Counted from the first letter of the stretch, positions 1,724-60,740 are shown. The stretch: 64,000 nucleotides of DNA from a virus (IMGVR_UViG_3300045988_047309:2082-66081), one strand, 5' to 3'. A program made the numbers and translations. Notes: generated by a model from the sequence alone, not told the origin.

Positions 1724-4700
1724 ATGCCAATAAATAGTAAGGTTAAGAGACTGTATGATGCCTTGAAGGCTGATGGTGGTGATGTTGGTACACCAGAAGA
1801 ATTTAACTCTTGGTTCTTTAAGCCTGGCAAGGAAGGTTACAAAAACAGAAAATCCGTATATGATACCTTCAAGGCTGATGGGGCTGATGTAGGGAAAAAC
1901 TATGAGGAGTTCGGTAAATGGCTTGGCCTTCATGCTGTTTATCCTACCGTAAACAAGTATCACCAGCAGATGCTGAACTCTGTTGACCCAAACAAGAGCA
2001 GGGCATCTGAACTTACTCATAGAGCGGTTAGTCAGGCAAAAAGAGGAATGAATAATGTCCGTAAGCCTGTCCGTGGTGCTGTAGTCAACAAGCAAGGTAA
2101 AAAGGTGAGTGAATTTGATATTACTCCTGCCAAGACCGTAGAAGACCTTGATAGAGAGTATGCTCAGGAGACAACAAAGAACTGGGAGAATGAACTGCAT
2201 GATCAGATGGCTGATGCCGACAAGGATGCAGCAAAGATTAGCGATATGTTCAAGTCCTTCATCGGTTCTATGGATGAGGTCGGTAGCGTGTGGGGTAATA
2301 TGACAAGAGGTGGCGGTATTGCAGGTACTCCTCATAGTGTTACTACCAACAATGGTCTCATGAAGAATACTGAAGCTCGCCAACTTCTTATTGCTGGTGA
2401 CTACAATCGTAAGAGAAGAGAACTCTTACAGTTGGAGCAGGATTCAAGAAATGGTGCTTTCTTTGACAATCATTCTTTTTTTAGAGGAATGTATGATGCT
2501 GCCAAAGACACTGGTTTCCTGACAGGTGGGGCTTTTAACCTTATCAGTGGTTTCACCATGCTTAAAACCAAGCAGGACTTGGATAATGGTGTCCATACGA
2601 AAGCTGGAGATATGCTGATGCAGCAAGCGGTAAAGAATAGTAATGCACAGAGTCAGTATGGTGACAATCAGGGATGGATGTACACTGGTGGTGTTATCAC
2701 TACCAATATGGCTCCTTTTATAGTGCAGATTGCCAGTGCAGGATTCTCCAAGGGTTTGAGTACTTCAATCGGCAAGGTTGTGCAGGGCGCAGCTTCCAAG
2801 GTGGCACTGGGTACAATGAAAAAGGCGGCAGGATTTGCAAGTGCAGATTTGGCTAAGAACATCGGTAAGGTAACTGGTCTTACTACCAAGGCTTTCGGCA
2901 AGGCTATCCAGTATGGAATCGTGGGTGCAGCCCAAGCTAATACAGTTGGTCTTGGAAATGTTGCTAACGATGTGATTAACCGCTATACGGGTCAGGTCTA
3001 TCAGGATGAGCAGGGTAACTACAAGTTCGGCACATTTGATAGTGATGGTAAACTTGTGCATGAAGGCGGTGAAGACTTCCTTACTGCCTTCGTAAAGGGT
3101 GATGCGGCTCAGACCATTGAGTTTGCTACTGAGTTGGCTGGCGGTGGCATTGATGCTGTGGGTACTGCCCTGAAGAACTTCGTTACCAAAGGTGGCAAGA
3201 AAATTATCAACAAGTACAACATGGAGAATGTCTCCAAGGTGATAGACTTCTTGCTTAATAATAAAGTGTCAAAGAATGTAAGATATTTGAAGGCTGGTGC
3301 TGACAGAACACTTGGTAAGGTTGAAGTGAATAGTATTGTCGGTGAGTCTCTGGAGGAAGAGTTGGGTATCATCGCCAATACGGTCTTTACTGGTGATAAC
3401 AAAATCTCAGACTTGTGGGATGAAAAGCAGCAGTCACAGATATGGGGCGGTATGCTCTTGTCTATCGGATTGATGAAGGGTGTTGTTGCTCCTTTCCATG
3501 CTTATAATGCCAAGCAGTATTATTCCTATAAGCATAAGCTAAACAAGGCTGATGTGAACTTGTCTCAGTTGCTCGGTAAAGAGAAGTGGGAAGAACTCCG
3601 TAATCAGATTGATGCTACAACAAACGAGGATATGCCTGAAATGGTAAACAGAATCAATCGTGATGTTGCTCTTGGTAAGAACAGACAGCCAGTGCGTGAG
3701 TATATTCAGAACTTGCTCATCATGCGTGGTTATGACATTGGTAATATGCTTGCAGCAAAGAAGGCAGTTGAAGATAAGGGTGAAGGTGTCTCCGTGAAGA
3801 ATATGGAGAAGAATCAGGCATATCAGCAGGGTCGTGATGCTTACGGCTATGATACACATGAGATTCAGTTAGACCAAGAAGACAAACAAAAGTCTCTTGC
3901 TCAACTTCTCGGTATATCAGAGCAGCAGTTGGCATCCATGAGTGATGAGGAGCTTGAATCATTCTCTGGTCGTGATGATAATATTGATAGGGCTATTTAT
4001 GACTACCAGTTGTCGAGTGCTCGCTATGAAGGTGTTGTTGATAACGCAAGAGACCAGATAGACTTGGAGGTTCAGAGAGCAGCACAGGCGGTTGATATGT
4101 ACACAGACAAGTCTCGTAATACTATCCGAAACGCTACCATCAAAGCATCAGGCGGCTTGGAAGACTATGGCGTGTATATTATCAGCGGTAATATTGCTAC
4201 TCATGATGATGGCTCCATTGATGTAAGCAATAGCGATGATATGATTCTGTATTATGACCCAACTACCAATACTGTTGAGCACGCTGATGCCATGATGTTT
4301 GCTGAACTGGGTAGTGAGGAGAATGCTGATGAAGTGAGAAGTCAGGCTATGGCTGATGCCAAGGAGAAGGCTATCAAAGAAACTACTGGTATCATTGATG
4401 GTGTTGTTGAGGTAGGTACTCAGTTCAAGACCGTTGGTGCAGATGGAACAGAACATACTTATGAAGTACTCGCTGATAATGGTGATGGTACTGCCATGAT
4501 TACTATTGATGGCAACATTCCAACAGAACTTGTCAAGGGTGAGAATGTAAATATTCCAGTCTCGTTTGAAGAGTTGCAGAAGATGAAGGATGAGTCTGAC
4601 CAGCAGAGATTGCAAGCGGCAAAGGCTCAGCGTGAACAGGTGGAGAAGGAGCGTGCTGAGCAACAGATGCAAGCACAGACTACACAAGCAGAGAATCCAA

Positions 4701-7700
4701 CTCAGGAAGATAATATCCAGTCAACACCTATCGAAGATAACATAGACTACTCTGATATAATCAGAGAGGATGGTAAGGTTCAGATGGTAGATGTTTCTGA
4801 TAAGGATGGAAATAATCTGTTCCCTGATGCTAAAGATGTTTTCTATATCCAAGGAAACAAGATGAGAACCAAGTTTGTTTATATTGATGCAAATGGAGAG
4901 TTGAAGACTCAGAGTTTCCCTACTGGATTGGTTAAGATAAAGACAAGGGGTGAAGTATCTGTTGATGATTACAAGAAGTATCGCAATACGTTACTCTCTG
5001 CTGAATCTTCTGCCATACCTGAATCCTCAATGATAGAGGATAATAGTGGCACAATAGAGGCTAATAGAGGTGGAATAGAGGTTGAAGATAACACTCAGCC
5101 TTTATCGGAAGCTGATGCTGACAATGTAATCGCCCAGATGGAATCAAGTGCAGAGACCGCTCCTGATTTGGAACTTACACCAGACAACTGGACAGCAGAG
5201 TTTGGTGAAGATGGAATCTTGTCTACTCCTATAGGTGATGTGAAGATGGGAGAGAATCAGGTGGCTAAGTTGTTTGAGAAAGGTCGTTCCAAGGAGTTTG
5301 GTATGATTAAGCCAACGCTTACGAATCCTGATGTGATAATCGAGGTTCCTTCTCATTCTGCTGATGGCAATGAGGAGCGTTCATCATCTTATCTGTTTAT
5401 CAAGACTTTCTTGGGTAAGAATGGCAAAAAGGTGTACTATTTCAAGTCTGTAACCATCAAGAAGGATGGTCTTGAAATCAGCATTAGCAGTAACTATGAC
5501 AGAGCAAAGAGAGTAAAGGAGGCATTAATGAAAGGGAAGTTGCTATATCGTAAGAACGATGGCGCACAGACCGAGCAGAACCAGCCTTCTACTTCTGTGG
5601 CAACTTCCCAAGAGGATGCTGCTGGCTCTTCTGAAAGCAAATTTACAAACATTTCTGCAAACGACAATGAAAATAATGAAAGTTTAACATTTGAAGATGG
5701 TACTCCTATCCCAGTTGATGAGAGTGGTGAGACTGACCTTAGTCAGACTGATGCTGCTCATGCTGCTGAGTGGTATGACAATAACCTCGGTGAGGATGCA
5801 GATGATTGGCTGGATGGAGAAATCAAGAAGGCTAAGAAAGTATTGGAGCAAGCAAAGAATAAGAAGTTGGCTGGCACTAAACCTTCTGAGTTGGTTGCAA
5901 GCAAGAAGGAGAAGGAAGCTGCAATAGCTGATGCCCAAGCACATTATGACTCTGCAATCTCTATCCGTGATTCGTTGAAGGAAAGAAGAATTGCCAAGGA
6001 AGAGAATACTGCTGAGGGCAGAAAGAGTCTCATTGAGAAGGCAAGAAGAAAGTTCACTCGATTGAAGAACAGCGAAGAATGGAGTGAGCGGACTGGTGAC
6101 TTGTGGAATGAGACGGTTGGCAAGTTGCTACATCGTCTGTATGATGCTACAGGAATTGATGTTTTCGATGATACTCCTAATACTGTCTATGAGTATGTTG
6201 CTGAAAATGTCGGTCCGTATAGCTTGAATTATGAAGGCAACGATAATTCGAAGGGAGTACAGCAGGAGACAGGTTTGTCTCGTTCTGACTTCGCCAAGTT
6301 AGGATGGCTCGCTGCCGAAGGCAAGGGTATGACTATTGATGCCAAAGTACACAGACTTTGGGAGAATAGGCCATCCAACTTGGAGAGTGCGGACACGCAG
6401 GAGATAAGAAACGCCTTGATCAGTCTTATTACAAGCGGTCAGACCGCATTCCAGGCGAGAGATTATATCCTGAATCAGCGTATCGAACTTGCAGAGAGTG
6501 CGCTGGAGGAGCAACTGAGACAGGAAGAAGATGCGGCCGAAGCTCAGAAGGCTAAGGAGGAGGAAGAAAAGAAAAAGGCTGAGCTGGAGAAGAAAGCAGA
6601 GGAGGAGAAGACGAATGAGAACAGAAATACTCCTGAACTTTCCCATGAACAACAAAAAGCTATGGAAGAGGGCGAGAAATTAGGTTTTCCTGCTGTTGAC
6701 AAGGAAGGCGAACCTATCAATCAGAATGTCATAGAACTTGCTAACTGGGCAAAGGAACAAGGCTTAGAGATAGACCCTACATCTAAGTCGAATAGCTACG
6801 CTGATTTGTACGTGATGTGTAAGGAAGGCTTCGGTGTCAGTACGTTGGTTCCTGATGTTGGCGAGGATATTAATCAGGTATTCTATTTCCCTGACAACGT
6901 ACAAGGTGAGCAATTAGCTAAACTGCAAGAGGAATTTAATGTAGGTCGTGACCTTAAACACTCTGCTGATATGAATAGCGAACTAACAGAAGGTGTTATG
7001 TTCTATGATGGAGATACAGCGAGAGAGTTCAGAGATTTTGTTAATGAGAAGGTAAATGAGGAGAGCAAGACTATTGAAGTTCCTGAGGATGCAACGGATG
7101 ATGCTCCTTTGGGTGAGCAACTTGATGAATCCGACCTTCCTTTCTCTGCTAAGGATAACGGCCAACAACAGACAACATCTGAGCGTGCTGCTGACGTAGA
7201 GAAGAACAAGGTGGATGATATGAAGGTCGTTGACAACATCGTGGGGCAGAAGACTCGCAAGGCTTTCGATAGGTTAGCTAAGATGATGGGTGCCAACATT
7301 CAGTGGCAGTACTCAGACAAGTTGGGTAACGGCTGGATTCAGGAGACTACGGATGCCGATGGCAACGTGCATCGTACTATCTTCATCACTCTTGACTCTT
7401 CTATCACGGAAGGTGCTCAGTTTATCTTCGGCCACGAAATGACTCACCAAATCAAGAACCTGAACCCTGCTGCATACGATGAGTTGACTCAGCTTGTTCT
7501 TGATACCTATGGCTCTGATGCCTTCGACAAGGCGGTAGATGAGACCATGCAGAGATATTCTGATGCAGGATTCTCTGGACGTGATAGAGATTACTATGCT
7601 GAGGAGGTTGTTGCTGATGCGGTAGGCGAAATGATTCGTGACCTCAACTTGGCTCACACTCTCGCTATGAAGATGTCTCATCCTCTGCTCGCTGCTATAC

Positions 7701-10700
7701 ATGAGATATTGCAGAAGATTAAGTTGGCGTTCTATGGCACTGAGTATAGCGATGCGACCAAGAATATCATCCGCTCCATCGAACAAGCCTATGTGAAGAC
7801 TGCAAAGGGTCTGGTGGAGAACTCTGATACTGGCGAAGATGTTTCATTCTCTCTCCGTCAAAAGCCTGAGCCTAAGAAGAAGGGTGTTGGCTACAAGGTG
7901 TTCGTATTGAAGGATGGCAAACTCTATCCGCCAATGGTAGCGAACCCTGATGGTGCTGCTACTCCAGTAGGTGTATGGCTTGATGCTGATGCTGCTCCTA
8001 TTGCAGGAGAAAGCAAGACTGGCAGACCTCAAGTTAAGCAGGGCGGTAAGGGAACACAAGGCGGTAGCGGTAAGTTAGCCTATAGACCAGGATGGCATCT
8101 TGGTGTGGTTCCTTACGCTATCCAGTTTAACCGCAAGGATGCTGAGGGAAACAAGACTCTCTTCCCTAAGAACTTTGTCTTCGCTGAGGTGGAGTATGCT
8201 GCTGATGTAGATTATCAGGATGAAGCTCGCCAAGAGGGTATCAATCCTTCGGGCAAGTATCAGCATTCTCTCGCTGGCTTGAAACATCTGCCAACTGATG
8301 GATATTATATGTATCGTACCAACCCGAACCCTGAGACTGATCCTTGGGTGATTACTGGTGCGATGAAGGTGAACCGTATCTTGACCAGAGCAGAGCAAGC
8401 AGACTTGGTAATCAAGGCTGGACGTGAACCTCAGCAGATTCAGGAGGGTGATATTGTTACTGATGATGTTGTGAACAGCATCAATCAGGAGATAGCTGAT
8501 GCTCCTAAGTTCTCGTTGAAGGTATATCATGGCAGCGGTGCTGACTTCACAGAGTTTGACTTCGACCACATGGGCGAGGGTGCTGGCTCCCAAGTATTCG
8601 GTTGGGGCGGCTATGTTACTTCATCAAAGAAGATTGGTAAGAGCTATGCGAATCTTGTAGATGCTAACGCTCCTTATCAAGATGTAGAATATGTTGGTAA
8701 TAACGCTCATGAATATACTGATATAGTTGCTGGCTTGTTTAATGGTGGTCAGAGAGATTATGATGATGTTAAGGAGTTCTTGCAGAATGGCTATAATTCC
8801 GACAAGGATAATGCTCGGAAGAAACAGATGTTGGAATGGTTTGAAAGTACAAAACCATCTGATTGGAAGTCTGTTAATGATGGAAAACGTAACCTCTATG
8901 AAGTGGATATTCCTGATGACAATGGCAGCAACTATCTGGATTGGGAAAATCCTTTGAATGAGGAACAGATAAATGCTATTCGTGATGCTTTGGCTAAGAA
9001 TGGTGTTGATGTTTCATCTTGGGAAAATAGAGGTTTCAAACTGGATTTGCCTTTTAAAGATGTATATGCAGCAGTTCTTCCAATGATGATGCGTTGTGAG
9101 CCAAAGGAAGTAAGCAAGTTCCTCTCTTCTCTTGGTTTTACTGGCATTAAATATCCTGCTGGTACTATCCAAGGTGGCGCAGAGGAAGGCGATACCAACT
9201 ATGTTATTTTCAAGCCTGAGGATATGAAAATTACTCAGCATACCAAGTTCTCTCTCCGTTTGAAGGCTGCTATTGAGGAAACAGAAACCAATCCATCTGA
9301 CGCACAGAAGGAGAGTGGCAACTACAAGAAGGGACACATCAAGTTCGGTGGCTACGATTACACAATAGAAAATCCAAAGGGTTCAACTCGTTCAGGCAAG
9401 GATGCCGATGGCAAAGAGTGGAAAATAACCATGCACGATACCTATGGCTATATCCGTGGTAAGTTCGGTAAGGATGGCGACCATCTGGATATGTTCATCA
9501 ACGACAAGGCAGACCTTGATAATTGGAATGGTGATGTGTTTGTCGTTGACCAAGTGAATCCTGATGGCTCATTTGACGAACACAAGGTGATGTACGGATA
9601 TGACTCTATGGATGATGCAGAAAAGGCTTATCTCGCCAACTATAGCGATGGTTGGCAGGGTCTTGGAAATATTACTGGAGCAAGTAAGGATGAGTTCGAT
9701 AAGTGGCTTGATACGAGCAATCGTAAGCTAAAGCCGTTTGCTGACTATGCAAAGGTGAAGTTTTCTCATGCGCAGTCTGTTTCTAAACCTCGTTACTCGT
9801 TGAAGGACATAAAGCCTATTGGTGTTGGTGCTTTTGGAAATATATACAATCAGTTCCGTGGCAAATCTAAAGCAGCTATAGAGTTCTTGAAGAAACTTGG
9901 TAGCGGTGAGGCAACTGCTGCTTTACATCATCATACTATTGGTGATATATCTTTGGTATGGGGAGATAAAAAGGCTGGTCTTGATAAGATTCTAAGAAAG
10001 CATCCTGAGGTTGTTGATAATTTGCAGTCTATCATAGATAGTATGGAGGTTGTTCAAGAAAGCGATAATCGTGTCAAGTTGGAATCGCCTACACACTTTG
10101 CTGTAGTAAGTAAGGAGTATAAGGGCGAACCAAGAGAACAATGGTTATTGACTGCATACGAAAAAAGAGAATCCTTGGAAAATGACAAGAGTATGGACAC
10201 TGCCACTTCTTCGTTGGGAGGTGACACAGCTCTCTCCCAATCCAAGGGTTCTGCTGCAAAGATAGACAATTCTTCTGAAACAGCCAAGGAAAATGGCGAA
10301 AAGTTTTCATTGAAGGATGAGAAGACTCTTGCAGGAGTTCATAACATTACAGAGGAGAAGCTGAGAAAGGCTATCAAGCAGGGTGGTCTTGCCAATCCGT
10401 CTGTGGCAGTTATTGATTCCAGTAAGCAGAACCATGAGGACTATGGTGACATTTCTCTGATATTGCCTTCTGAAAAGGTGGCCAAGAGAACTGGAAAGAA
10501 CGCTGGCACTTGGCAGGGCGATGCTTGGACGCCTACCTATCCGCAAGTAGAGAGACAGATGAGCAATAATGGGGCTGCAAAAGCATCTAAGGATGTTAGT
10601 TCTGTCCCTGGCGATATGTATAACGAGGTAAGAAGAGGACTTGACCGATGGCTGGATGGTGGAGAAGGAAACTCTGCTATGGCTTATATTTTCCTTCACG

Positions 10701-13700
10701 AAAAGGGTGTGGCACCTGAACCGAAGAAGATTCAGCATAAGTTTAGTGATGACGTATATAACGAGTTGAAGTCTATTACTGCTGGAGACTTCAATATCTA
10801 TGGTATCGGAAAGGCTGATGCCCAGAAAGTATTGGGTATGTACATTGATGCCAAGTTTGATGGCGATAAGGATTTGTATGAGGAGAAGACCAAGGCTTGG
10901 TTGGAAAGAAACAAGTCTATCGTTGATGCTGGTAATAAGGGTGGAATGAGATATACCATTGCCAAAGAGAATGTTGAACTATACGATGAATATGGTTTCA
11001 ACTATAAGAGTGTGCAGACTTTCGTCCGTGATGTAGAGTATGACCATCGCAAGACAGGTGTTGACATGAATGCCACGCTTAATGATGTTGAAGACTACAT
11101 TAAGACCAATAACCTGACGGATGAATTCAATACTTGGCTGGAAGGTAAAGAAAAGGAGTATGGTATTAAGGAGGTAATCTTTGATGGCTTCACTCCAAGC
11201 GGCAATCGTAGATATGTACCAAACACCTTGGAGAATGTTTCCAAGATAATGAAGAAACAAGGCAGAAATGGTGCAACTGGAATATCGGTATCTTTCCAAA
11301 ACTTCGCTGCAAGTTTGATGCCTTCTTATGGAACATTGAAGGATATTCGCTCCAAGAAAGGCTTGTTGACTTCTGATCATGAGGATTTAGATAAGTTCAA
11401 CGAAAAGTGGTCTAAAGTATTCTTTGAACTTGGCATGAAGTGCCAGCCTGATGCAACTGGAACTTTTGATGATTATGGTTTGGCAAGGCTCTCTGAGGCG
11501 GCAAAGACAAGTGATCCACAAGCCTATTTGAAGAAGGAGTACAATGTGGACTTCTCAGATGGGGATACGAAACGTTTGAAGGAAATGGTTAAGGCTATCA
11601 AGGAAGAGTCCCCAGCCATGTACTTTGAAACAAAGTTTGAACGTCCTGTTGGCTTTAACGAGTTCTCTTCTGCTGTGGTCCCAACAACGGCAAGTGACGA
11701 GGTTAAGCAGGCTTTGCAGAATGCTGGTGTTCAGATTTACGAGTACGATAAGGAGAAGGAAGGAGACCGCAGTCGTGCCTTCAATGAAGCTATCAACGGT
11801 AGTGACAATATTCGTTTCTCTCTGAAATCAATGATGGAGAAACCTGAGGGATGGAAACAAGCCAACAAGAAGGCTATACATATTGCAGAAGCTATAGAGC
11901 GTGACCCTAAGTTCTCCTTGAAGAACCTTGATGGCACTCTCATTAAGGCAGGAACCTATTTCAGTGGTGGTGGTCTTGTTGAGGAAGGCTTGAAGGGTAT
12001 CATCGACCCAGTGGTGGCAGTGGAGTATGACGAGAAGATAAGCGGTGTATATCGCAATAACTTCGGGCAGCACATCGTTACTGCTGATGTTCGTGATGTT
12101 GACCCTAAGGAGTTGGTGAAGCAGATAGATGGCGAGGTGGAGTACTTCCATGCCAGCCCAGTCTGCAAGAACTACTCTCAGGCGAAGAGTAACCATGCAG
12201 AGGTGGAACTTGACAAGGAGACTGCTGCAAGTACTGCCGAGTTTATCAATGCTATTAAGCCAAAGGTGGTGACCATTGAAAACGTGAAGGGATATAAGGA
12301 TTCGGAAGCGATGAAGATTATCACGGATGCCCTGGATGCCAACGGTTATACTTGGGATGCAGATGTGTATAATGCTGCTGACTATGGCGGCTACACCAAC
12401 CGAGAGAGGTTGATTGTCCGTGCGGTTCGTGATGGTAAACTCCCTGAAAAGCCAAAGAAGATGGCACACAAGAGCGGATGGTATGAAGCTGTGGCTGATA
12501 TTATCCCGACCCTGACCGAGAAGAAGAATGGTGTGGCTCCTTGGATGGATATTCGCTTGAAGGCTGATGGTATTGACTGGAGAAACATTGACAAGCCATT
12601 GTATGTGATGGGTAGTGCTTATGCTGATGGCAAGATTCCTCATGCTTTTGCTGACGAACTCCTGCCAACACTCAGAACCAAGAGTGGTGATGTGATTGTT
12701 ATGCCTGATGGCAAGGTATATCGTGCTATGGGCAGAGTGCTCGCAAGAGTATCAGGAGTGAGCGATGATTACAAGATGCCATTCTCCGAGAACCTGAGCC
12801 ATACCATCATCGGTAATGGAATACCTACCCAGTTGACGGAACATGTGATTGCTCCTCTTTTGCAGAACACCTTGCGCCCAACTACTCCTGATGATGGTAA
12901 TACCAAGTTCTCTCTCCGTGGCTCCACACCTTACGACAAGCAGATGGAAGAGTGGATGGAGAAGAACCATTTAGAAAAGGGTGCTGTTCCTATGGAAAAA
13001 CCTGTCATGAAGGAAGGTGAGAACATTTTTGATTATGCCAACAGAATGGTAGAGTGGACTCGCAATCAGAACTTGTGGAAGACCGCTCCTAAGCAGACTG
13101 GATTCCAAGATGCACTCGACAAGTGGAAGGCTGACAATGGTCTTTCTCCTGATGCTTATCCACCTGTCCGTCCTCATCGTGAAAACTATTCAACAGAAAT
13201 CGGTTATACAGAAGACTTGGAGGAGTACAACAAGAAGAAAGAACTCTGGAAGTCTGCTCCAAAGCCAAAGGACTTTGATTTGTCCGTTGACTTGGAGGAT
13301 ATGAACAAGCAGCTTCGTAATATCAGAAGAGCGGTTCTGAATCAGAAGAACTATGACCAGAGAACGGTTAAGGCGGTATCTGACCTTGTAAGAAAGATGC
13401 TCAACATTGGATGGGGTGACGGATTGAGCAGGGGTAAGGTAGGCAACCTTCTCTCTGCTGCCAAGAATGCCACTGGAGCCAATGACGTGAAGAAGTATCT
13501 CGACAAGGCTATGGGAATCCTTGCTGAAAACTATCTCAACCGTCTCTCTACTGCCTACGACAACCTTATCAATACCAGGGGTGCAAGGGCAGACCAGAGC
13601 GGTGTGATTAAGATGGGTTCTCTTGATGCCAAGGGTCAGGCTTTCATGAGCGAGTATAAGAAGGCTATCAATATGGATGATAGCTCTCTGAATACCTATA

Positions 13701-16700
13701 TAGCAAACATTGAGGAAGATTCTGCCAAGAATGAAGATAATGTGGAAATGAATGACTACAGACTGGCTGGTATTCAAGCTGCCATCATGTATAAGCAGCA
13801 GATTGGCGGCAATGATGCCGATATTTCCGAGTTGAAGAGACAGATTGGTGAGTTGAAGAATAAGAAGGATGCTACCAAGGAAGACAAGGATTTGTTGAAG
13901 TCCTTGGAAAAGAAACTCTTTGAGAATAAGTTTGACCGCATCACCATGTACGAGAATCTTCTGAATAATATTCAGAGAATGGTGAAGGAGAGTAAGGGTA
14001 GGGCAAAGGAGTTCCGAGAGGAGATTACTGAGCACAAGAATGAAATCCTGCATCGTGCCAACTTGGATTTGGAAGGTGTGGATTCTGCCTATTATGATAC
14101 CACAACTGCCAAGAAGAAGTTTGTGAATAATCCTATTCTCCGTTTCGTCATGTCTTCAACATACACATTTGAGCAGTTCTTGAAGTTCTTTGGCAGACAT
14201 CATGCAAATGGTGAAGGCTATCTCTACAACTACTTTATGTCTGAATGGCAGGATGCAGCAGACGAACAGCAGTTGTATAATGAAATGAACCGCAATGCCC
14301 TTGATGAGAAGACCAAGGAGTTGTTCGGCAAGAAGAACTTCACAAAACTGGTAGGTATTGATGGCAAGGGTATGAAGGAAATGGACGTTGAGGTTACTGA
14401 CTACTCCAACAAGGAGACTGGTAAGCGAACCATCCATCTGAAACAAGGTCAGATGCTCTATATCTATCTGGTCAATAAGGAGACTGATGGAGAAATGAAA
14501 CTCCGTGCTATGGGTATCACAGAGGAAAAAGTGGCTGAAATCGAGGAAAATCTTGACCCAAGAGTGAAGGCTATTGGTGAGTGGTTGCAGGATGAATATC
14601 TTCCTGAATGTCAGAGAAGATACCAAGCTACCCATACCAAGTACTTCGGTGCTCCTATGAAGGAGGTGGAGAACTATTTCCCTCTTGCCATCAATAACCG
14701 GGCAAGAAATATCAGGGAAGATTTGAATCAAGATACTGATGCAATAAGTCGATTGGCTGGTACTTCTACTGGTGCTATTATTACACGAAGGGTGAACGTA
14801 ATTCCTCTTGATATAGAGAATGCCGATGCTTTTGCGGTTGCCTTCAACCATCTGGATGAAATGGAAGAGTGGTCTGCTTACTTGCCATTTATACAAGATG
14901 TCAACACCTTACTCTCTTCTACTCATTTCAGAAATCAGGTAATGAACATGTCTTCTGCTGCCTACGGAAGTGGTAAAACCTTATGGGAGGAGTTTAAGAA
15001 AGTGGCTCAGATTGCTGCTGGAACATACAAGCCAAAGGTTGACAATGGTATGATGGATAGCAAGATTGCTGCTGTTGTCGGTGGTATTGCTACCGCAAAG
15101 ATTTCAGGTCGTTTGTGGACTGCCTTTAAACAAACTCAGTCTGCAACCACGTTCCTTACTGAATGTGACCCAGCTAGATTCTTGTGGTATGGTGTTAACC
15201 CATACGGCTCATGGCATTGGGCTTATGATAACCTTCCATTGTTCCGTAAGCGTGTAGAGCAGTTGACTGCTGGTGATGTAAAGGTAAGACAATTCTTGGA
15301 TGAGTTAGAGAAATACCATGACTGGACAAAGACTATTGCAAAGGTTGGTATGTCTCCTAATATACTTGTTGACTCTGTAACTTGTGCGGTTGGTGCTCGT
15401 TCCGTTTATGAGACTGAATTGAATAAACTGACCAAGTTGGGCTATTCAAAAGATAAGGCAGAGGAGAAGGCTATACAAAAGGCATCGCTTTCATACAATA
15501 AGACTCAGCAATCGTCTGAGGGTGCTTTCTTATCTCCAATGCAGGTTGATAGAACATACGTATCTGCTGCTTTGTCGCTCTATAAAAATGCTAACTATGC
15601 TTATGGTAGAAAGAAGATTGAAGCAATTAGAGGTATAGCCAAGACGTATAGATTCTGGGGTGAACATAAAAATGCCATGATTGGTTCAATGACAAGACAG
15701 ATTATGGATGAGGATGGTCTTGATGAAAATGTTGCTAATGCTATCGCAAAAAGAGCATATACAAGAACATTTTGGTATAATATAGGTACGCTCCTGAATT
15801 ACATGACTATCGTTCCGATTTCTTGGGCTGCATACAAGGTGCTTCTATATCTCCTGAATGGTGATGATGATGACAAGAAAAAGAAGATGATTGAGGAAGC
15901 GTGCTTAAAAGGATTTGCTACCACAACATTTGATGATTATGTGATTCCGTTTGCTTCAAATGTCCTGAATGCAGGATTGAACATAGAAGATGGCAAGATA
16001 GGTTTTGATACTGATGTTTTCAAGTATCAGAATTTATATATCAACCCAGCTACATCTGACTTGTCGAATATCTATTCTATGATAGGTAATCAGAAATGGT
16101 GGTCTGCTGGCAACAAATTCGGTATGCTTGGCATTCAGATGCTCGTAGGATTCAATCCTGAGACCATAGGAGCACTCTATCAGGCTTACGATGAGTTTGA
16201 TAAGGATAGCGGTAATATGCCATTGGAGATTAAACTTGCCGTATTGAAGTCTATAAGTGCCCCTGAGGAGAGTATAAGAGGTCTCTATATGGATGAACTC
16301 GGTCTTGATAATGAGGATAGAACCAAGGTTCCATTGTCGGTACTGGAGCAGAGATATGCCGAGAGACAGATTAATCGTGACAACCTTCTGTCTCAGATTG
16401 CCATGCCGAAGGAAACTTTTGATGGCTATGTTGAAAAGTACAAAAAGTCTTTCGAGAAGAAGATTCAGGATAAGATGGATAAGATGGATGCTTACGACCA
16501 GAGGAAGTTTGATGCTATCTTTGATACTACTACAGACCCTGCATTGAAGGGTATGATGGAAAAGAAACGTACCAAGGATGCCAATGCTGCTGCTGACGAG
16601 CAGATAGCAAAGGAAGGTCTGAATCAAGAGAAGAAGGGTAAGGAGCCTAGCGAAGAAGCTTACGATGCAGTAAAGATGTCTATTGATGTGGCGGAAGATA

Positions 16701-16984
16701 ATGCTATCAGTACCTACAATAAGGTGCTCAACAAGCGATACGCTGCCCTGAATGATGAGTACAACAATCAGACAGATGCAATGAAGTACATCTTTATGAG
16801 TAAGCATCCAAACTTCAAGGCATACAAGGATTTGGAATCTGAATATACCACGTATGGCAAGAAGATGAAGGAGTTGAAGGAAAAACTGGTTTCTGCTGAC
16901 GGATATGATGCCAAGCAGACAATCCTGAAACAGATACGTGCCGAAAGAGAGAAGTTCAGTGAACTGCAATCCAAGGTAAGATAA
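1724..16984 (+). CDS. giant polyvalent virion/ejection protein (5,086 aa) with multiple enzymatic modules
   Basis: Single uninterrupted 15,261-nt ORF with an ATG start, followed by a strong hairpin terminator. Contains HEMTH, C5-MTase motifs I/IV/VI/VIII/X, a PPase-like module, an ART-like module, two BECR-like modules and Gly-rich hydrophobic segments. Confidence 0.9.
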   Translation: MPINSKVKRLYDALKADGGDVGTPEEFNSWFFKPGKEGYKNRKSVYDTFKADGADVGKNYEEFGKWLGLHAVYPTVNKYHQQMLNSVDPNKSRASELTHRAVSQAKRGMNNVRKPVRGAVVNKQGKKVSEFDITPAKTVEDLDREYAQETTKNWENELHDQMADADKDAAKISDMFKSFIGSMDEVGSVWGNMTRGGGIAGTPHSVTTNNGLMKNTEARQLLIAGDYNRKRRELLQLEQDSRNGAFFDNHSFFRGMYDAAKDTGFLTGGAFNLISGFTMLKTKQDLDNGVHTKAGDMLMQQAVKNSNAQSQYGDNQGWMYTGGVITTNMAPFIVQIASAGFSKGLSTSIGKVVQGAASKVALGTMKKAAGFASADLAKNIGKVTGLTTKAFGKAIQYGIVGAAQANTVGLGNVANDVINRYTGQVYQDEQGNYKFGTFDSDGKLVHEGGEDFLTAFVKGDAAQTIEFATELAGGGIDAVGTALKNFVTKGGKKIINKYNMENVSKVIDFLLNNKVSKNVRYLKAGADRTLGKVEVNSIVGESLEEELGIIANTVFTGDNKISDLWDEKQQSQIWGGMLLSIGLMKGVVAPFHAYNAKQYYSYKHKLNKADVNLSQLLGKEKWEELRNQIDATTNEDMPEMVNRINRDVALGKNRQPVREYIQNLLIMRGYDIGNMLAAKKAVEDKGEGVSVKNMEKNQAYQQGRDAYGYDTHEIQLDQEDKQKSLAQLLGISEQQLASMSDEELESFSGRDDNIDRAIYDYQLSSARYEGVVDNARDQIDLEVQRAAQAVDMYTDKSRNTIRNATIKASGGLEDYGVYIISGNIATHDDGSIDVSNSDDMILYYDPTTNTVEHADAMMFAELGSEENADEVRSQAMADAKEKAIKETTGIIDGVVEVGTQFKTVGADGTEHTYEVLADNGDGTAMITIDGNIPTELVKGENVNIPVSFEELQKMKDESDQQRLQAAKAQREQVEKERAEQQMQAQTTQAENPTQEDNIQSTPIEDNIDYSDIIREDGKVQMVDVSDKDGNNLFPDAKDVFYIQGNKMRTKFVYIDANGELKTQSFPTGLVKIKTRGEVSVDDYKKYRNTLLSAESSAIPESSMIEDNSGTIEANRGGIEVEDNTQPLSEADADNVIAQMESSAETAPDLELTPDNWTAEFGEDGILSTPIGDVKMGENQVAKLFEKGRSKEFGMIKPTLTNPDVIIEVPSHSADGNEERSSSYLFIKTFLGKNGKKVYYFKSVTIKKDGLEISISSNYDRAKRVKEALMKGKLLYRKNDGAQTEQNQPSTSVATSQEDAAGSSESKFTNISANDNENNESLTFEDGTPIPVDESGETDLSQTDAAHAAEWYDNNLGEDADDWLDGEIKKAKKVLEQAKNKKLAGTKPSELVASKKEKEAAIADAQAHYDSAISIRDSLKERRIAKEENTAEGRKSLIEKARRKFTRLKNSEEWSERTGDLWNETVGKLLHRLYDATGIDVFDDTPNTVYEYVAENVGPYSLNYEGNDNSKGVQQETGLSRSDFAKLGWLAAEGKGMTIDAKVHRLWENRPSNLESADTQEIRNALISLITSGQTAFQARDYILNQRIELAESALEEQLRQEEDAAEAQKAKEEEEKKKAELEKKAEEEKTNENRNTPELSHEQQKAMEEGEKLGFPAVDKEGEPINQNVIELANWAKEQGLEIDPTSKSNSYADLYVMCKEGFGVSTLVPDVGEDINQVFYFPDNVQGEQLAKLQEEFNVGRDLKHSADMNSELTEGVMFYDGDTAREFRDFVNEKVNEESKTIEVPEDATDDAPLGEQLDESDLPFSAKDNGQQQTTSERAADVEKNKVDDMKVVDNIVGQKTRKAFDRLAKMMGANIQWQYSDKLGNGWIQETTDADGNVHRTIFITLDSSITEGAQFIFGHEMTHQIKNLNPAAYDELTQLVLDTYGSDAFDKAVDETMQRYSDAGFSGRDRDYYAEEVVADAVGEMIRDLNLAHTLAMKMSHPLLAAIHEILQKIKLAFYGTEYSDATKNIIRSIEQAYVKTAKGLVENSDTGEDVSFSLRQKPEPKKKGVGYKVFVLKDGKLYPPMVANPDGAATPVGVWLDADAAPIAGESKTGRPQVKQGGKGTQGGSGKLAYRPGWHLGVVPYAIQFNRKDAEGNKTLFPKNFVFAEVEYAADVDYQDEARQEGINPSGKYQHSLAGLKHLPTDGYYMYRTNPNPETDPWVITGAMKVNRILTRAEQADLVIKAGREPQQIQEGDIVTDDVVNSINQEIADAPKFSLKVYHGSGADFTEFDFDHMGEGAGSQVFGWGGYVTSSKKIGKSYANLVDANAPYQDVEYVGNNAHEYTDIVAGLFNGGQRDYDDVKEFLQNGYNSDKDNARKKQMLEWFESTKPSDWKSVNDGKRNLYEVDIPDDNGSNYLDWENPLNEEQINAIRDALAKNGVDVSSWENRGFKLDLPFKDVYAAVLPMMMRCEPKEVSKFLSSLGFTGIKYPAGTIQGGAEEGDTNYVIFKPEDMKITQHTKFSLRLKAAIEETETNPSDAQKESGNYKKGHIKFGGYDYTIENPKGSTRSGKDADGKEWKITMHDTYGYIRGKFGKDGDHLDMFINDKADLDNWNGDVFVVDQVNPDGSFDEHKVMYGYDSMDDAEKAYLANYSDGWQGLGNITGASKDEFDKWLDTSNRKLKPFADYAKVKFSHAQSVSKPRYSLKDIKPIGVGAFGNIYNQFRGKSKAAIEFLKKLGSGEATAALHHHTIGDISLVWGDKKAGLDKILRKHPEVVDNLQSIIDSMEVVQESDNRVKLESPTHFAVVSKEYKGEPREQWLLTAYEKRESLENDKSMDTATSSLGGDTALSQSKGSAAKIDNSSETAKENGEKFSLKDEKTLAGVHNITEEKLRKAIKQGGLANPSVAVIDSSKQNHEDYGDISLILPSEKVAKRTGKNAGTWQGDAWTPTYPQVERQMSNNGAAKASKDVSSVPGDMYNEVRRGLDRWLDGGEGNSAMAYIFLHEKGVAPEPKKIQHKFSDDVYNELKSITAGDFNIYGIGKADAQKVLGMYIDAKFDGDKDLYEEKTKAWLERNKSIVDAGNKGGMRYTIAKENVELYDEYGFNYKSVQTFVRDVEYDHRKTGVDMNATLNDVEDYIKTNNLTDEFNTWLEGKEKEYGIKEVIFDGFTPSGNRRYVPNTLENVSKIMKKQGRNGATGISVSFQNFAASLMPSYGTLKDIRSKKGLLTSDHEDLDKFNEKWSKVFFELGMKCQPDATGTFDDYGLARLSEAAKTSDPQAYLKKEYNVDFSDGDTKRLKEMVKAIKEESPAMYFETKFERPVGFNEFSSAVVPTTASDEVKQALQNAGVQIYEYDKEKEGDRSRAFNEAINGSDNIRFSLKSMMEKPEGWKQANKKAIHIAEAIERDPKFSLKNLDGTLIKAGTYFSGGGLVEEGLKGIIDPVVAVEYDEKISGVYRNNFGQHIVTADVRDVDPKELVKQIDGEVEYFHASPVCKNYSQAKSNHAEVELDKETAASTAEFINAIKPKVVTIENVKGYKDSEAMKIITDALDANGYTWDADVYNAADYGGYTNRERLIVRAVRDGKLPEKPKKMAHKSGWYEAVADIIPTLTEKKNGVAPWMDIRLKADGIDWRNIDKPLYVMGSAYADGKIPHAFADELLPTLRTKSGDVIVMPDGKVYRAMGRVLARVSGVSDDYKMPFSENLSHTIIGNGIPTQLTEHVIAPLLQNTLRPTTPDDGNTKFSLRGSTPYDKQMEEWMEKNHLEKGAVPMEKPVMKEGENIFDYANRMVEWTRNQNLWKTAPKQTGFQDALDKWKADNGLSPDAYPPVRPHRENYSTEIGYTEDLEEYNKKKELWKSAPKPKDFDLSVDLEDMNKQLRNIRRAVLNQKNYDQRTVKAVSDLVRKMLNIGWGDGLSRGKVGNLLSAAKNATGANDVKKYLDKAMGILAENYLNRLSTAYDNLINTRGARADQSGVIKMGSLDAKGQAFMSEYKKAINMDDSSLNTYIANIEEDSAKNEDNVEMNDYRLAGIQAAIMYKQQIGGNDADISELKRQIGELKNKKDATKEDKDLLKSLEKKLFENKFDRITMYENLLNNIQRMVKESKGRAKEFREEITEHKNEILHRANLDLEGVDSAYYDTTTAKKKFVNNPILRFVMSSTYTFEQFLKFFGRHHANGEGYLYNYFMSEWQDAADEQQLYNEMNRNALDEKTKELFGKKNFTKLVGIDGKGMKEMDVEVTDYSNKETGKRTIHLKQGQMLYIYLVNKETDGEMKLRAMGITEEKVAEIEENLDPRVKAIGEWLQDEYLPECQRRYQATHTKYFGAPMKEVENYFPLAINNRARNIREDLNQDTDAISRLAGTSTGAIITRRVNVIPLDIENADAFAVAFNHLDEMEEWSAYLPFIQDVNTLLSSTHFRNQVMNMSSAAYGSGKTLWEEFKKVAQIAAGTYKPKVDNGMMDSKIAAVVGGIATAKISGRLWTAFKQTQSATTFLTECDPARFLWYGVNPYGSWHWAYDNLPLFRKRVEQLTAGDVKVRQFLDELEKYHDWTKTIAKVGMSPNILVDSVTCAVGARSVYETELNKLTKLGYSKDKAEEKAIQKASLSYNKTQQSSEGAFLSPMQVDRTYVSAALSLYKNANYAYGRKKIEAIRGIAKTYRFWGEHKNAMIGSMTRQIMDEDGLDENVANAIAKRAYTRTFWYNIGTLLNYMTIVPISWAAYKVLLYLLNGDDDDKKKKMIEEACLKGFATTTFDDYVIPFASNVLNAGLNIEDGKIGFDTDVFKYQNLYINPATSDLSNIYSMIGNQKWWSAGNKFGMLGIQMLVGFNPETIGALYQAYDEFDKDSGNMPLEIKLAVLKSISAPEESIRGLYMDELGLDNEDRTKVPLSVLEQRYAERQINRDNLLSQIAMPKETFDGYVEKYKKSFEKKIQDKMDKMDAYDQRKFDAIFDTTTDPALKGMMEKKRTKDANAAADEQIAKEGLNQEKKGKEPSEEAYDAVKMSIDVAEDNAISTYNKVLNKRYAALNDEYNNQTDAMKYIFMSKHPNFKAYKDLESEYTTYGKKMKELKEKLVSADGYDAKQTILKQIRAEREKFSELQSKVR
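5171..5560 (+). other. BECR-fold (barnase/EndoU/colicin E5-D/RelE-like) RNase-type module of polyvalent proteins, copy 1
   Basis: aa ~1150-1280: ELTPDNWTAEFGEDGILSTPIGDVKMGENQVAKLFEKGRSKEFGMIKPTL...YLFIKTF...YFKSVTIKKDGLEISISS. The pattern is recalled from PBECR-type modules (Iyer et al. 2017). Not HMM-verified. Confidence 0.4.
7250..7800 (+). other. zincin-like metallopeptidase module (HExxH)
   Basis: FIFGHEMTHQIKN with HEMTH at nt 7433-7447 (aa 1904-1908). The context resembles the metallopeptidase module of polyvalent proteins. Confidence 0.6.
7859..8506 (+). other. conserved polyvalent-protein module of unknown function (YRPGWHLG type)
   Basis: aa 2046-2261, bounded by SFSLR and KFSLK. 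Contains GYKVFVLKDGKLYPPMVANP...KLAYRPGWHLG...YYMYRTNPNPETDPWVITGAMKV. Confidence 0.35.
8522..9244 (+). other. ADP-ribosyltransferase-like module (polyvalent-protein ART type)
   Basis: aa 2267-2507: VYHGSGADFTEFDFDHMGEGAGSQVFGWGGYVTSS ... TNYVIFKPEDMKI. This fits an H-Y-E-like triad arrangement. Assigned from motif memory only. Confidence 0.5.
9260..9790 (+). other. inorganic-pyrophosphatase-fold module
   Basis: aa 2513-2689: TIENPKGSTRSGKDADGKEWKITMHDTYGYIRGKFGKDGDHLDMFI...VFVVDQ...FDEHKVMYG. It parallels the family I PPase pattern (E.PKGS...YP.NYGFIP.T...DGDPLD...D.K). Confidence 0.6.
9806..10300 (+). other. BECR-fold RNase-type module, copy 2
   Basis: aa 2695-2859: GDISLVWGDKKAGLDKILRKHPEVVDNLQSIIDSMEVVQESDNRVKLESPTHFAVVSKEY...WLLTAYEKR. 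Typical of the putative barnase/colicin E5-like module of polyvalent proteins. Confidence 0.5.
11924..12904 (+). other. C5-cytosine DNA methyltransferase module
   Basis: aa 3401-3727: FSGGG (motif I), FHASPVCKNYS (IV, PC), TIENVKGY (VI, ENV), TNRERLIVRAV (VIII), LPTLRT (TRD), IGNGIP (X). Bounded by KFSLK and KFSLR. Confidence 0.8.
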
Positions 16985-37734: not shown

Positions 37735-38193
37735 ATGAAGACAAAGTGGTATGATTGGCAAGTAGCACCCTGCGTGATAAGCCTCTTGTTGGCGGTGTTT
37801 CTTCTGTCGGGATGCAAAACGAAGTACATTCCGATAGAAAAAGTTGTATATCAGAATGCGATAAAGCACGATACGCTGCATACTTCTGACAGCGTTTTCG
37901 TGCGTGATTCTGTATATCTCAGGCAAAAGGGAGATACGTGTTATCTTGACCGATGGCATGAGAAAACCGTCTTTAAGAATGTGTATATAGTAAAGGTGGA
38001 TTCCTTCATGAAAAGAGATTCCATCCCAGTGCCCTATCCAGTAGAAAAGCAACTCTCCAAATGGGAGCAGATTCAGTTGAAGTATGCAGTGTGGTCGTTT
38101 GGCGCACTCTGCATGCTGCTTATCATATTAGGTTATAAACTCTATAAAAAGATAAAGAATGGCAGATTTCACATTAACAATCAAGAAAAATGA
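37735..38193 (+). CDS. unimolecular spanin candidate (lipoprotein with C-terminal TM anchor)
   Basis: Lipobox LLSGC at aa 23-27 and a C-terminal TM helix AVWSFGALCMLLIILGY. Immediately after the endolysin gene. Architecture as in T1 gp11. Confidence 0.6.
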   Translation: MKTKWYDWQVAPCVISLLLAVFLLSGCKTKYIPIEKVVYQNAIKHDTLHTSDSVFVRDSVYLRQKGDTCYLDRWHEKTVFKNVYIVKVDSFMKRDSIPVPYPVEKQLSKWEQIQLKYAVWSFGALCMLLIILGYKLYKKIKNGRFHINNQEK

Positions 38194-38617
38194 CATCTAT
38201 GAAGAGGTGGAGAAGACCACTGCCTACATAGGTAAGAAGGCAACCGTAGAGGATGGCAAATCGGCTTTTGATCAGATATTCGTAACGGAAGCAGACTTGG
38301 CAATGATAGAGCGGTTCTTCAACGAGTCGTTGGATGCGCTAAGAAATGTTCTGAAACGATTTATCTCAGGAGGCTCAGGAGTAGACGGGACCATCAACTG
38401 GGAACTTGAGATGCCCAGCAGATTCGATGGCAACCTACTCGATTCCATCAATTCGTCAGCCAACTCGTTCTTGGTAAACAGTATTATCGGGAAATGGTGC
38501 GAGATAGTCGCAAACGAAAAGGCAAAAGAGTATGCGGATAACGCTGCTGCATTATTGCTCGACATCAAGGATAAAGCGTTCTACAAAAAGAAACCGGCAC
38601 GAACAAAAATATCATAG
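38159..38617 (+). CDS. tandem paralogue 1 (possible gp6-like head-tail adaptor family)
   Basis: 152 aa. Shares DIYEEVEKTTAYIGKK and ...SSANSFLVNSIIGKWCEIV blocks with the next two ORFs. Confidence 0.55.
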   Translation: MADFTLTIKKNDIYEEVEKTTAYIGKKATVEDGKSAFDQIFVTEADLAMIERFFNESLDALRNVLKRFISGGSGVDGTINWELEMPSRFDGNLLDSINSSANSFLVNSIIGKWCEIVANEKAKEYADNAAALLLDIKDKAFYKKKPARTKIS

Positions 38618-38618
38618 T

Positions 38619-39122
38619 ATGGCAAGAAAGAGTTTAACGATTACGTTGTATATGAGTGAACTCATTTACGACTTTCAGAATAAGGCGTTCCTTACAGGAC
38701 GCAGTAGAAGAGCTGCCAGTATGGATGCAGAGGCGGCAAGTAATATCCAGGCGAGCGATGATGACGAAGACAAGAATCAGGCATTGCGTAGCATTCAGAA
38801 TGCGTACAGTCAACTGCTTGTGGAGTTGAGTGAGTCAGTTCAAACAGACACAGGTACCACTGCGTCTAACGAGTTGATAAGTGGCGATACCAATATCACC
38901 ATCAACCTCTCCCTTCCATCAAACTATCCACTCGCCTTGAAGGATGCGCTTACCAGTTCCATCCATGACTACATTATCAACAAAGCCTTGATGGACTGGT
39001 TTATCATTACCAATCCTAACGAGTCGAAGACTTATTCAGAACTGTCGATAGCTGCTATCAAGAATCTGCATGAGACCTTTAACAGACGTGAGAGACCCAG
39101 CAGGACAGCTCCCAACGAATAA
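38619..39122 (+). CDS. tandem paralogue 2
   Basis: Starts MARKSL, 1 nt after the previous stop. Blocks LIYDFQNKAFLTGRS, DDDEDKNQALRSIQNAY and SSIHDYIINKALMDWFIIT. Confidence 0.6.
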   Translation: MARKSLTITLYMSELIYDFQNKAFLTGRSRRAASMDAEAASNIQASDDDEDKNQALRSIQNAYSQLLVELSESVQTDTGTTASNELISGDTNITINLSLPSNYPLALKDALTSSIHDYIINKALMDWFIITNPNESKTYSELSIAAIKNLHETFNRRERPSRTAPNE

Positions 39123-39136
39123 GGAAGGAGGTCATC

Positions 39137-39691
39137 ATGAAAGAATGCAGAGTATGCAACCTTGGGTACAAGGTGATGATAGAGCTTCAGAAGAAGGAGT
39201 TGATTTTTGACATCAAGAATACGGCTGCCGTTTACGCTGATTCCATCTCCAGTTCTGTAGAAGATTCCCATTCTATCCACAACATCTACGATGTGGGCGA
39301 GGATGGCAACAGAGATAAGTTGGCAAGGATTCTTGATTCAGCAGTAGAAGACTGCAACGAAATGCTTTTCAGATATACCAAGATGGAAATGCTTGGTGGC
39401 GGTTTCGATTCCAATGAGTGGGAAGAATGTATAGGTTCGCCTACAAACGAGGAAGAAGCATACTATTTGGCGATGAGAATACCGCAGGGTTTCTCTAAGA
39501 CGAGCGTACATACCATGACGGTATATATCCATGACTACATAGTCAATCAATGCCTATACGAGTGGTTGACGATTGTTTATCCCGATGGTGCTGACAGATT
39601 CCTGGCACTTGCCGAGGAGAAGAAACAGAAGATCAAGAGCGCAAGCAATCGGTCGGCTGGCAGGGCAAGAATTACTTTGCATCCATTTTAA
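39137..39691 (+). CDS. tandem paralogue 3
   Basis: GGAAGGAGG upstream of the ATG. Blocks LIFDIKNTAAVYADS and VYIHDYIVNQCLYEWLTIV. Confidence 0.6.
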   Translation: MKECRVCNLGYKVMIELQKKELIFDIKNTAAVYADSISSSVEDSHSIHNIYDVGEDGNRDKLARILDSAVEDCNEMLFRYTKMEMLGGGFDSNEWEECIGSPTNEEEAYYLAMRIPQGFSKTSVHTMTVYIHDYIVNQCLYEWLTIVYPDGADRFLALAEEKKQKIKSASNRSAGRARITLHPF

Positions 39692-60724: not shown

Positions 60725-60740
60725 TTAATGTGTGGTAGGT

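Follow-up and report, generated by a model that had tools for sequence, protein, structure and literature searches.

A recurrent pentapeptide at the module junctions of a giant phage polyvalent protein, a candidate cleavage site of its embedded zincin

Polyvalent proteins are widespread counter-defence weapons of phages and plasmids, and since 2017 it has been proposed that the zincin-like metallopeptidases embedded in them release the polyvalent domains by autoproteolysis (Iyer, Burroughs, Anand, de Souza and Aravind 2017, PMC5512222). Here we describe a giant protein of this kind, encoded in a viral DNA stretch of 64,000 nucleotides (nt) (IMGVR_UViG_3300045988_047309:2082-66081, hereafter the window), in which the pentapeptide [KRS][FY]SL[KR] occurs eight times. 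The open reading frame (ORF) of 15.3 kb encodes 5,086 amino acids (aa) and matches the Pfam families LPD14, PBECR2, ART-PolyVal, InPase, PBECR1, PBECR5 and DNA_methylase; with several unrelated effector domains on one chain, it fits the definition of polyvalent proteins given by Iyer et al. It shares with the published class LPD14, PBECR1/2/5, ART-PolyVal, InPase and a C5 methylase in one phage giant, and it has a putative embedded zincin, but this zincin has no significant Pfam model, and text searches of PMC5512222 found no cleavage or junction motif. Searches of the accessible literature likewise returned no junction or cleavage motif described for polyvalent proteins, and no paper on cleavage products of the giant protein of this phage. 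A related giant protein, gp47 of phage phi24B, has been found in virions (bioRxiv 10.64898/2026.04.10.717836), and by this parallel the window protein may also be packaged and delivered by the virion. Both the class of proteins and the suggestion that zincins process them are already published; what is added here is a specific motif at the junctions, the coupling of this motif to a single zincin family and the shuffling of modules at it.

The polyproteins of RNA viruses (as with picornavirus 3C and its Q|G sites) resemble the window protein in having an embedded protease, short linker sites at domain borders and spacer peptides. The protease class is, however, unrelated, the sites of the window protein punctuate a central array alone and leave out both multi-domain terminal regions, its cassettes encode accessory effectors against the host and differ between near-identical phages, and cleavage here is predicted. 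Polymorphic toxins also have a short peptide at the border between constant and variable parts that serves as a recombination breakpoint (VENN in CdiA, PxxxxDPxGL in Rhs), and the Rhs demarcation motif is an autoproteolysis site as well. Their motif is single and stands before one C-terminal toxin, whereas here 6-11 copies flank internal cassettes, the sequence is another one, the link is to a zincin and not to the Rhs aspartyl protease, and immunity genes are missing, with no immunity-like gene downstream of the giant gene.

Translation of the window agreed exactly with the eight pentapeptides listed in the original prediction (aa 2041-3732; Table 1). These are confined to the central array, since the looser pattern [FYW]S[LIVM][KRH] gave the same eight alone, with none in aa 1-2040 or in aa 3733-5086. 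A rough estimate had put the number of chance matches far below one, and it proved sound: 0.037 matches are expected from composition against the 8 seen (0.20 for [FY]SL[KR]), 5,000 shuffles gave a maximum of 2 for the five-residue pattern and of 3 for [FY]SL[KR], and KFSL is the commonest 4-mer of the giant protein. A six-frame scan of the whole window found no other convincing copy in a real ORF. The placement of the motifs at module boundaries was also borne out, given that the Pfam envelopes of ART-PolyVal, InPase, PBECR1, PBECR5 and DNA_methylase each sit between consecutive motifs and that one 27-aa spacer, as described earlier, separates two of them. Three details of the prediction had to be amended. 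The module regarded as unknown is indeed delimited by motifs, but its N-terminal part is a PBECR5 domain. Two copies do have an identical nucleotide string in common, but it is 20 nt and not 19 nt long (9240-9259 = 12900-12919, with the 19-mer inside). The upstream gene does end in SKFSIHH, but the corresponding genes of related phage loci end in GGKKKTGVKW or close variants, so this tail was ruled out as part of the system and its resemblance to the motif is coincidental.

Because the pattern was drawn up with the sequence already in view, the recurrence could in principle be an artefact of chance or composition. This explanation can be practically dismissed and is already refuted, as the motif is 200-fold over expectation in the window and was replicated independently in three sets of sequences, namely 120 homologues, the loci of 80 phages and 148 representatives of distant relatives.

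Homologues keep the motif at their junctions, as seen in the 120 homologous proteins and the 80 phage loci. The strict motif matched 574 times in the 284,642 aa of the 120 homologous proteins, at a density of about 2 per 1,000 aa in these and in the 80 related phages alike, and with 6-11 copies per protein. Nearly all loose matches in the homologues are preceded by K, R, S or L. The motif stands in at least 38 junction contexts with less than 50% mutual identity, in which positions -1 to +3 are all that is held in common; more weakly, V, P, T or I is preferred at -2, and positions -5 to -3 favour acidic residues, Gly or Asn. In a leave-one-out test Ser was recovered in 175 of 179 close instances and in 103 of 141 distant ones, the lesser alternatives being Ala and Gly and hardly ever Thr, and leaving the other positions free in turn recovered the same residue each time. 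At the DNA level, across 437 unique motif contexts, Ser is encoded by each of the four TCN codons, Leu by codons of both families and the basic residues by several codons for Arg and Lys, besides K/R, F/Y and L/I/V exchanges; because synonymous codons vary so freely, selection must act on the amino acids and not on the DNA, and a repeat or recombination signal in the DNA was ruled out as the primary explanation. The Ser codon itself is TCN in 409 and AGY in 28 of the 437 contexts, against a background of 60% TCN and 40% AGY in the window and 80 related loci (L003-L082). The rarity of AGY suggests that the copies share descent and did not originate independently, and the bias would be consistent with one ancestral site under continuous selection.

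In P0187, P0198, P0233, P0252 and other distant representatives, otherwise different cassettes end in the same tail, PLSERFNxxxxD[IV]R[FY]SL, and in the proteins with this tail the motif often lacks the trailing basic residue.

The domain that precedes the first site carries the motifs HEMTH and EEVVAD, which at the level of sequence make up HExxH plus ExxxD, the gluzincin signature. In alignments of the zincin, QFxFGHExxH and EExxAD are invariant in members down to 26-27% identity to the window protein (E146, E147, A150 and D151 in alignment A3). These invariant residues are those of the thermolysin and neprilysin gluzincins, and their spacing resembles that of M13 peptidases, to which three homologues match weakly; in contrast to those enzymes, the domain has no significant sequence or fold match and its roughly 210 aa are embedded in a chain of 5,086 aa. 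A profile of the zincin alone was searched against 1.84 billion representative proteins (E<=1e-3, clusters at 50% identity) and gave 2,703 relatives at that threshold, the top 150 of which are mostly giants of 2,000-6,200 aa.

The motif is statistically coupled to this HEMTH zincin family. In each of the 80 phage giants, GHExxH precedes the first motif by exactly 138 aa. Counts of the core [KR][FY]S[LIVM] in 148 zincin-family representatives came to 325 against 49 expected, and in the distant subset to 180 against 37 (five-fold enriched). The core is also strongly polar in its distribution: the stretches ahead of the zincin, 124,480 aa in all, hold 12 copies, and the 295,525 aa that begin with the zincin hold 348 (12-fold). 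Of the proteins, 42 of 134 evaluable proteins have a copy 125-160 aa past HExxH, compared with 2.7% for random windows in the same proteins. These anchored copies have unrelated flanks (AKYSLKQ, VRYSIKE, GKFSLME, TRFSIKY, NRYSIKR), and even proteins with zincins of about 25% identity retain the motif. Traits of a self-processing polyprotein are present, namely sites in linkers at domain borders, here in the central array only, and co-occurrence of site and protease; a site anchored at the C-terminal border of the peptidase, with all others downstream, is what an autoprocessing polyprotein that cuts first in cis and then downstream would look like.

A full KFSLR also occurs within the C-terminal helices of the zincin in P0115 and P0129, 74 aa past HExxH (equivalent to about aa 1978-1982 of the window protein), close to the start of truncated chromosomal copies (MSHPLL...).

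The array between the motifs is extremely variable. Cutting 121 proteins at the motif yielded 668 internal segments, which fall into 36 families and more than 80 orders, and the lengths within families are very tight (e.g., 32, 59, 193 and 222 aa). The family of the YRPGWHLG module, constant at 221-222 aa, comes first in most arrays, and the 27-aa spacer with its leading motif forms the family M3, whose 67 copies are invariably 32 aa long. In 49 complete giants, from phages 90-95% identical over the zincin and cassette-1 region, there are 41 cassette orders. The earlier proposal that the motif permits module shuffling agrees well with these data, as shuffling falls exactly at the motif: the ends of BLAST alignments with relatives coincide with motifs (2266-2509, 2512-2678, 2866-3367 and 3405-3717), and at junctions with differing partners residues -3 to 0 go with the upstream cassette and residues from +2 onward with the downstream one, which places the crossovers at the motif centre. 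The giant locus of these phages (L003-L082) is hypervariable to a degree comparable with polymorphic toxin loci.

Such data raise the question of whether the motif is mainly a signal for cassette exchange that is never cut, like VENN or PxxxxDPxGL of the polymorphic toxins. The number of orders in near-identical phages, the position of the crossovers, the identical 20-nt stretch of two copies, the shared descent suggested by the Ser codons and the restriction of the motif to the variable region all speak for this explanation. With just 15 nt and extensive synonymous and conservative variation, however, the constraint is on the peptide; the motif survives beside zincins of about 25% identity and in unrelated flanks; and a pure DNA signal would leave both the anchored site after the zincin and the preference for linkers unexplained. 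We regard an exchange signal as improbable in the leading role and place it third among the alternatives, while as a secondary role it is compatible with cleavage by the embedded zincin.

Structure prediction places the sites where a protease could reach them. AlphaFold2 models were obtained for aa 2490-2705, with a 14-sequence alignment, and for aa 1770-2062, and at sites 1, 3 and 4 the motif is found within disordered linkers or at their edge and not in folded cores, a location that would have refuted the original prediction. Residues 1815-2028 are folded, with a predicted local distance difference test score (pLDDT) of about 80, and comprise three strands followed by the helix that bears HEMTH; site 1 lies in coil (pLDDT <40) 13 aa past the last zincin helix. 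The tail ahead of site 3 has pLDDT <50 and the confident first helix of InPase begins at the F of the motif, while site 4 and a degenerate KFSH are in coil with pLDDT of about 30. This KFSH (nt 9758-9769, aa 2679-2682) lies in the disordered InPase tail 11 aa ahead of RYSLK, homologues have KFSLK or KFSQ at its position, and it looks like a site decayed after a past cassette exchange.

A peptide exposed in linkers and repeated 6-11 times per protein might equally be a short linear motif with no role in proteolysis, either a strand to which a chaperone or a partner in packaging or ejection docks, or a site of Ser modification. The resemblance of [KR]-x-S-hydrophobic-[KR] to basophilic kinase sites, together with an almost invariant Ser and a near absence of Thr, would fit the latter. 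Yet the window shows no identified kinase or partner, the distant replacements of Ser are Ala and Gly, small residues that suit a protease subsite but not a phospho-acceptor, and the coupling to the peptidase domain would find no explanation. This alternative, the second in rank, also seems to us unlikely.

Cleavage by the embedded zincin itself has to be weighed against several results that count against it. In the AlphaFold2 models FSLR of site 3 forms the first turn of a confident helix, and site 1 is predicted to be disordered and not docked into the zincin (aa 1770-2062); Foldseek searches of both models against the PDB gave nothing significant (best E-value 0.2). A profile search of the PDB with the zincin alignment found no match either, and Pfam gave no significant metallopeptidase (MPTase) model for the zincin, with weak matches to M13, M48 and DUF6782 (M13 at E=0.01 in 3 of 7 members). 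Among the distant zincin proteins, 42 of 134 have zero copies of the core motif downstream, and the polarity could partly reflect an array that merely sits downstream of the zincin. Relatives with other junctions belong here as well: gp68 of the Bacteroides phage BF1-TP2 (L002 5815-16716) has no HExxH and four [IV]RFR[ES] junctions, at aa 1547, 1753, 2258 and 2479, the P0071 group combines [VI]R[FY]xx junctions with different HEYxH zincins, and chromosomal copies truncated within the zincin retain intact motifs. In the P0013 type of these copies (L001) the zincin is truncated so that homology starts at aa 1946 of the giant protein, and more than 10 cassette orders have that start. The common denominator across the relatives is hydrophobic-[KR]-[FY], and the residues past the aromatic one are lineage-specific, which could mean different proteases or a role independent of a protease. 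Synteny with the cultured temperate phage BF1-TP2 extends over three genes (182 aa, about 400 aa and the giant), and gp68 has InPase and PBECR5 cassettes in common with the window protein.

The lone polyvalent genes L001 10001-17860 (P0013) and L083 10001-18553 (P0071), of 2,600-2,850 aa, lie in Prevotella-like chromosomes among housekeeping genes (BipA, S15, OmpA; DnaG, ClpP, ClpX, RecQ), with no phage genes nearby.

The same relatives favour a protease that acts in trans, be it an unrecognised head or maturation protease of the phage or a host protease, because BF1-TP2 has junctions and no HExxH and because the zincin-less chromosomal copies keep the motif. Processing of virion-delivered anti-host proteins at a short consensus is known from head proteases, which trim injected effectors in T4 and in phiKZ-like phages, and the head protease of SPN3US reportedly does the same; the consensus is L/I-x-E for T4 gp21 and S/A/G-x-E for phiKZ and SPN3US. 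The consensus in the window is a different one, and the head protease that had been offered as an alternative in the original prediction was not recognised: about 40 ORFs of the window, many of which stayed without annotation, were compared with PHROGs and Pfam, and none matched a prohead protease or, except for a retropepsin-like gene at the prophage edge, any protease family; the capsid protein, the portal and all other ORFs are free of the motif. Processing of the motifs by a head protease was set aside as unlikely on these scans. Constant spacing, polarity and an anchored first site furthermore link the motif to the zincin, and we therefore consider cleavage in trans unlikely, even if it comes first among the alternatives.

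Taking all this together, we favour the reading that the sites are cleavage sites of the embedded zincin and at the same time points of in-frame cassette exchange, to which we give a probability of about 0.55. According to this proposal, the giant protein would be a polyprotein with a constant N-terminal part that ends in a gluzincin-like metallopeptidase, a hypervariable array of effectors, among them an ADP-ribosyltransferase, a pyrophosphatase, two RNases of the BECR type and a C5 DNA methylase, and a constant C-terminal part, each cassette being preceded by [KR]-[FY]-S-[LIV]-[KR] in a flexible linker, usually after an acidic or Gly/Asn-rich stretch. The zincin would recognise these sites and cut the chain, first in cis at site 1, its own C-terminal boundary, and then at the sites downstream, so that each cassette would be freed as an enzyme of its own, either inside the capsid or once delivered into the host. 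Gluzincins of the thermolysin and neprilysin type cleave N-terminally to bulky hydrophobic residues, and by this analogy the scissile bond would most likely lie between [KR] and [FY]. Complete cutting, between positions -1 and 0 of every site, is predicted to yield an N-terminal product of 226.1 kDa, six cassettes (24.2, 27.6, 20.6, 18.6, 56.6 and 36.6 kDa in chain order), a peptide of 3.7 kDa ahead of the last cassette and a C-terminal product of 155.5 kDa. Cleavage itself, the enzyme, the bond and the timing are inferred. Because every junction has the same site, cassettes could be inserted, deleted or swapped in frame and the protease would not have to be retuned, and the shared site would therefore explain the extreme shuffling; very probably it facilitates in-frame exchange as a secondary effect. 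For the broader claim that [KR]-[FY]-S-[LIV]-[KR] is the cleavage code of an undescribed gluzincin family in thousands of giant phage effector polyproteins, we judge the chances to be evenly balanced.

Table 1. Parts of the giant polyvalent protein gene in the window, with the basis of each assignment
Feature	Position (nt)	Strand	Basis or remarks
Giant polyvalent protein gene	1724..16984	+	5,086 aa, 15.3-kb ORF; Pfam domains
N-terminal constant region, aa 1-2040, motif-free	1724..7843	+	40-90% identity kept in homologues
LPD14	3128-3541	+	Pfam; inside N-terminal constant region
PBECR2	5201-5551	+	Pfam; inside N-terminal constant region
Embedded zincin-like domain, aa 1815-2028	7166..7807	+	AlphaFold2 and invariant motifs
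HEMTH, aa 1904-1908; proposed zinc-binding/catalytic motif	7433..7447	+	sequence
EEVVAD, aa 1960-1965; ExxxD, proposed third zinc ligand (gluzincin signature)	7601..7618	+	invariant residues
Site 1 SFSLR, aa 2041-2045; zincin C-terminal boundary	7844..7858	+	translation
Cassette 1, YRPGWHLG module, aa 2046-2261	7859..8506	+	YRPGWHLG at aa 2120
Site 2 KFSLK, aa 2262-2266	8507..8521	+	translation
Cassette 2, ART-PolyVal ADP-ribosyltransferase module, aa 2267-2507	8522..9244	+	Pfam envelope aa 2265-2314
Site 3 KFSLR, aa 2508-2512	9245..9259	+	translation
Cassette 3, InPase module, aa 2513-2689	9260..9790	+	Pfam envelope aa 2526-2662
Site 4 RYSLK, aa 2690-2694	9791..9805	+	translation
Cassette 4, PBECR1 RNase-like module, aa 2695-2859	9806..10300	+	Pfam envelope aa 2734-2816
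Site 5 KFSLK, aa 2860-2864	10301..10315	+	translation
Cassette 5, PBECR5 and uncharacterised region, aa 2865-3363	10316..11812	+	Pfam PBECR5 aa 2865-2957
Site 6 RFSLK, aa 3364-3368	11813..11827	+	translation
27-aa spacer peptide, aa 3369-3395	11828..11908	+	32-aa unit with its leading motif
Site 7 KFSLK, aa 3396-3400	11909..11923	+	translation
Cassette 6, C5 cytosine DNA methyltransferase, aa 3401-3727	11924..12904	+	Pfam DNA_methylase aa 3413-3710
Site 8 KFSLR, aa 3728-3732	12905..12919	+	translation
C-terminal constant region, aa 3733-5086 (1,354 aa), motif-free	12920..16981	+	no Pfam match

The C-terminal constant region is 83-84% identical over its full length to those of P0003 and P0061, and related phage giants extend 1,196-1,732 aa beyond their last motif.

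The window corresponds to nearly the whole genome of a temperate phage, with genes for a large terminase, a portal, an SU10-type capsid protein, an endolysin and an integrase, besides a RecE-like exonuclease and a methyltransferase. The giant gene is carried by 80 IMG/VR contigs of 45-68 kb, and a 93%-identical copy lies in a prophage of the Segatella copri HDE04 chromosome (NZ_CP152346.1, around 1.48 Mb); the giant protein belongs to a Segatella/Prevotella prophage. The sole protease-like gene among the ORFs scanned in the window (60732-61922, + strand), a fusion of a retropepsin-like aspartic protease with tetratricopeptide repeats (TPR), lies in a stretch of 34% GC next to the integrase gene (62548-63711, - strand) at the prophage edge; no link to the motif was found for it, and it is probably a moron or a gene of the host flank. 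Downstream of the endolysin gene there are three tandem paralogues of unknown function (38159-39691, + strand; phrog_19255 / phrog_35482).

A junction motif that goes with one zincin family makes the proposal of 2017 directly testable, as it specifies eight sites, the masses of the fragments and one catalytic Glu. The motif would also explain the dozens of effector line-ups found in nearly identical gut phages, would give a rule by which the limits of unknown effector domains can be drawn in metagenomic giants, and might serve in protein engineering as a portable self-releasing linker. If the reading is true, polyvalent proteins would have here their first defined processing site, and these phages would carry plug-and-play effectors, flanked by a code and released on delivery, with which their anti-defence arsenal could be freely reshuffled.

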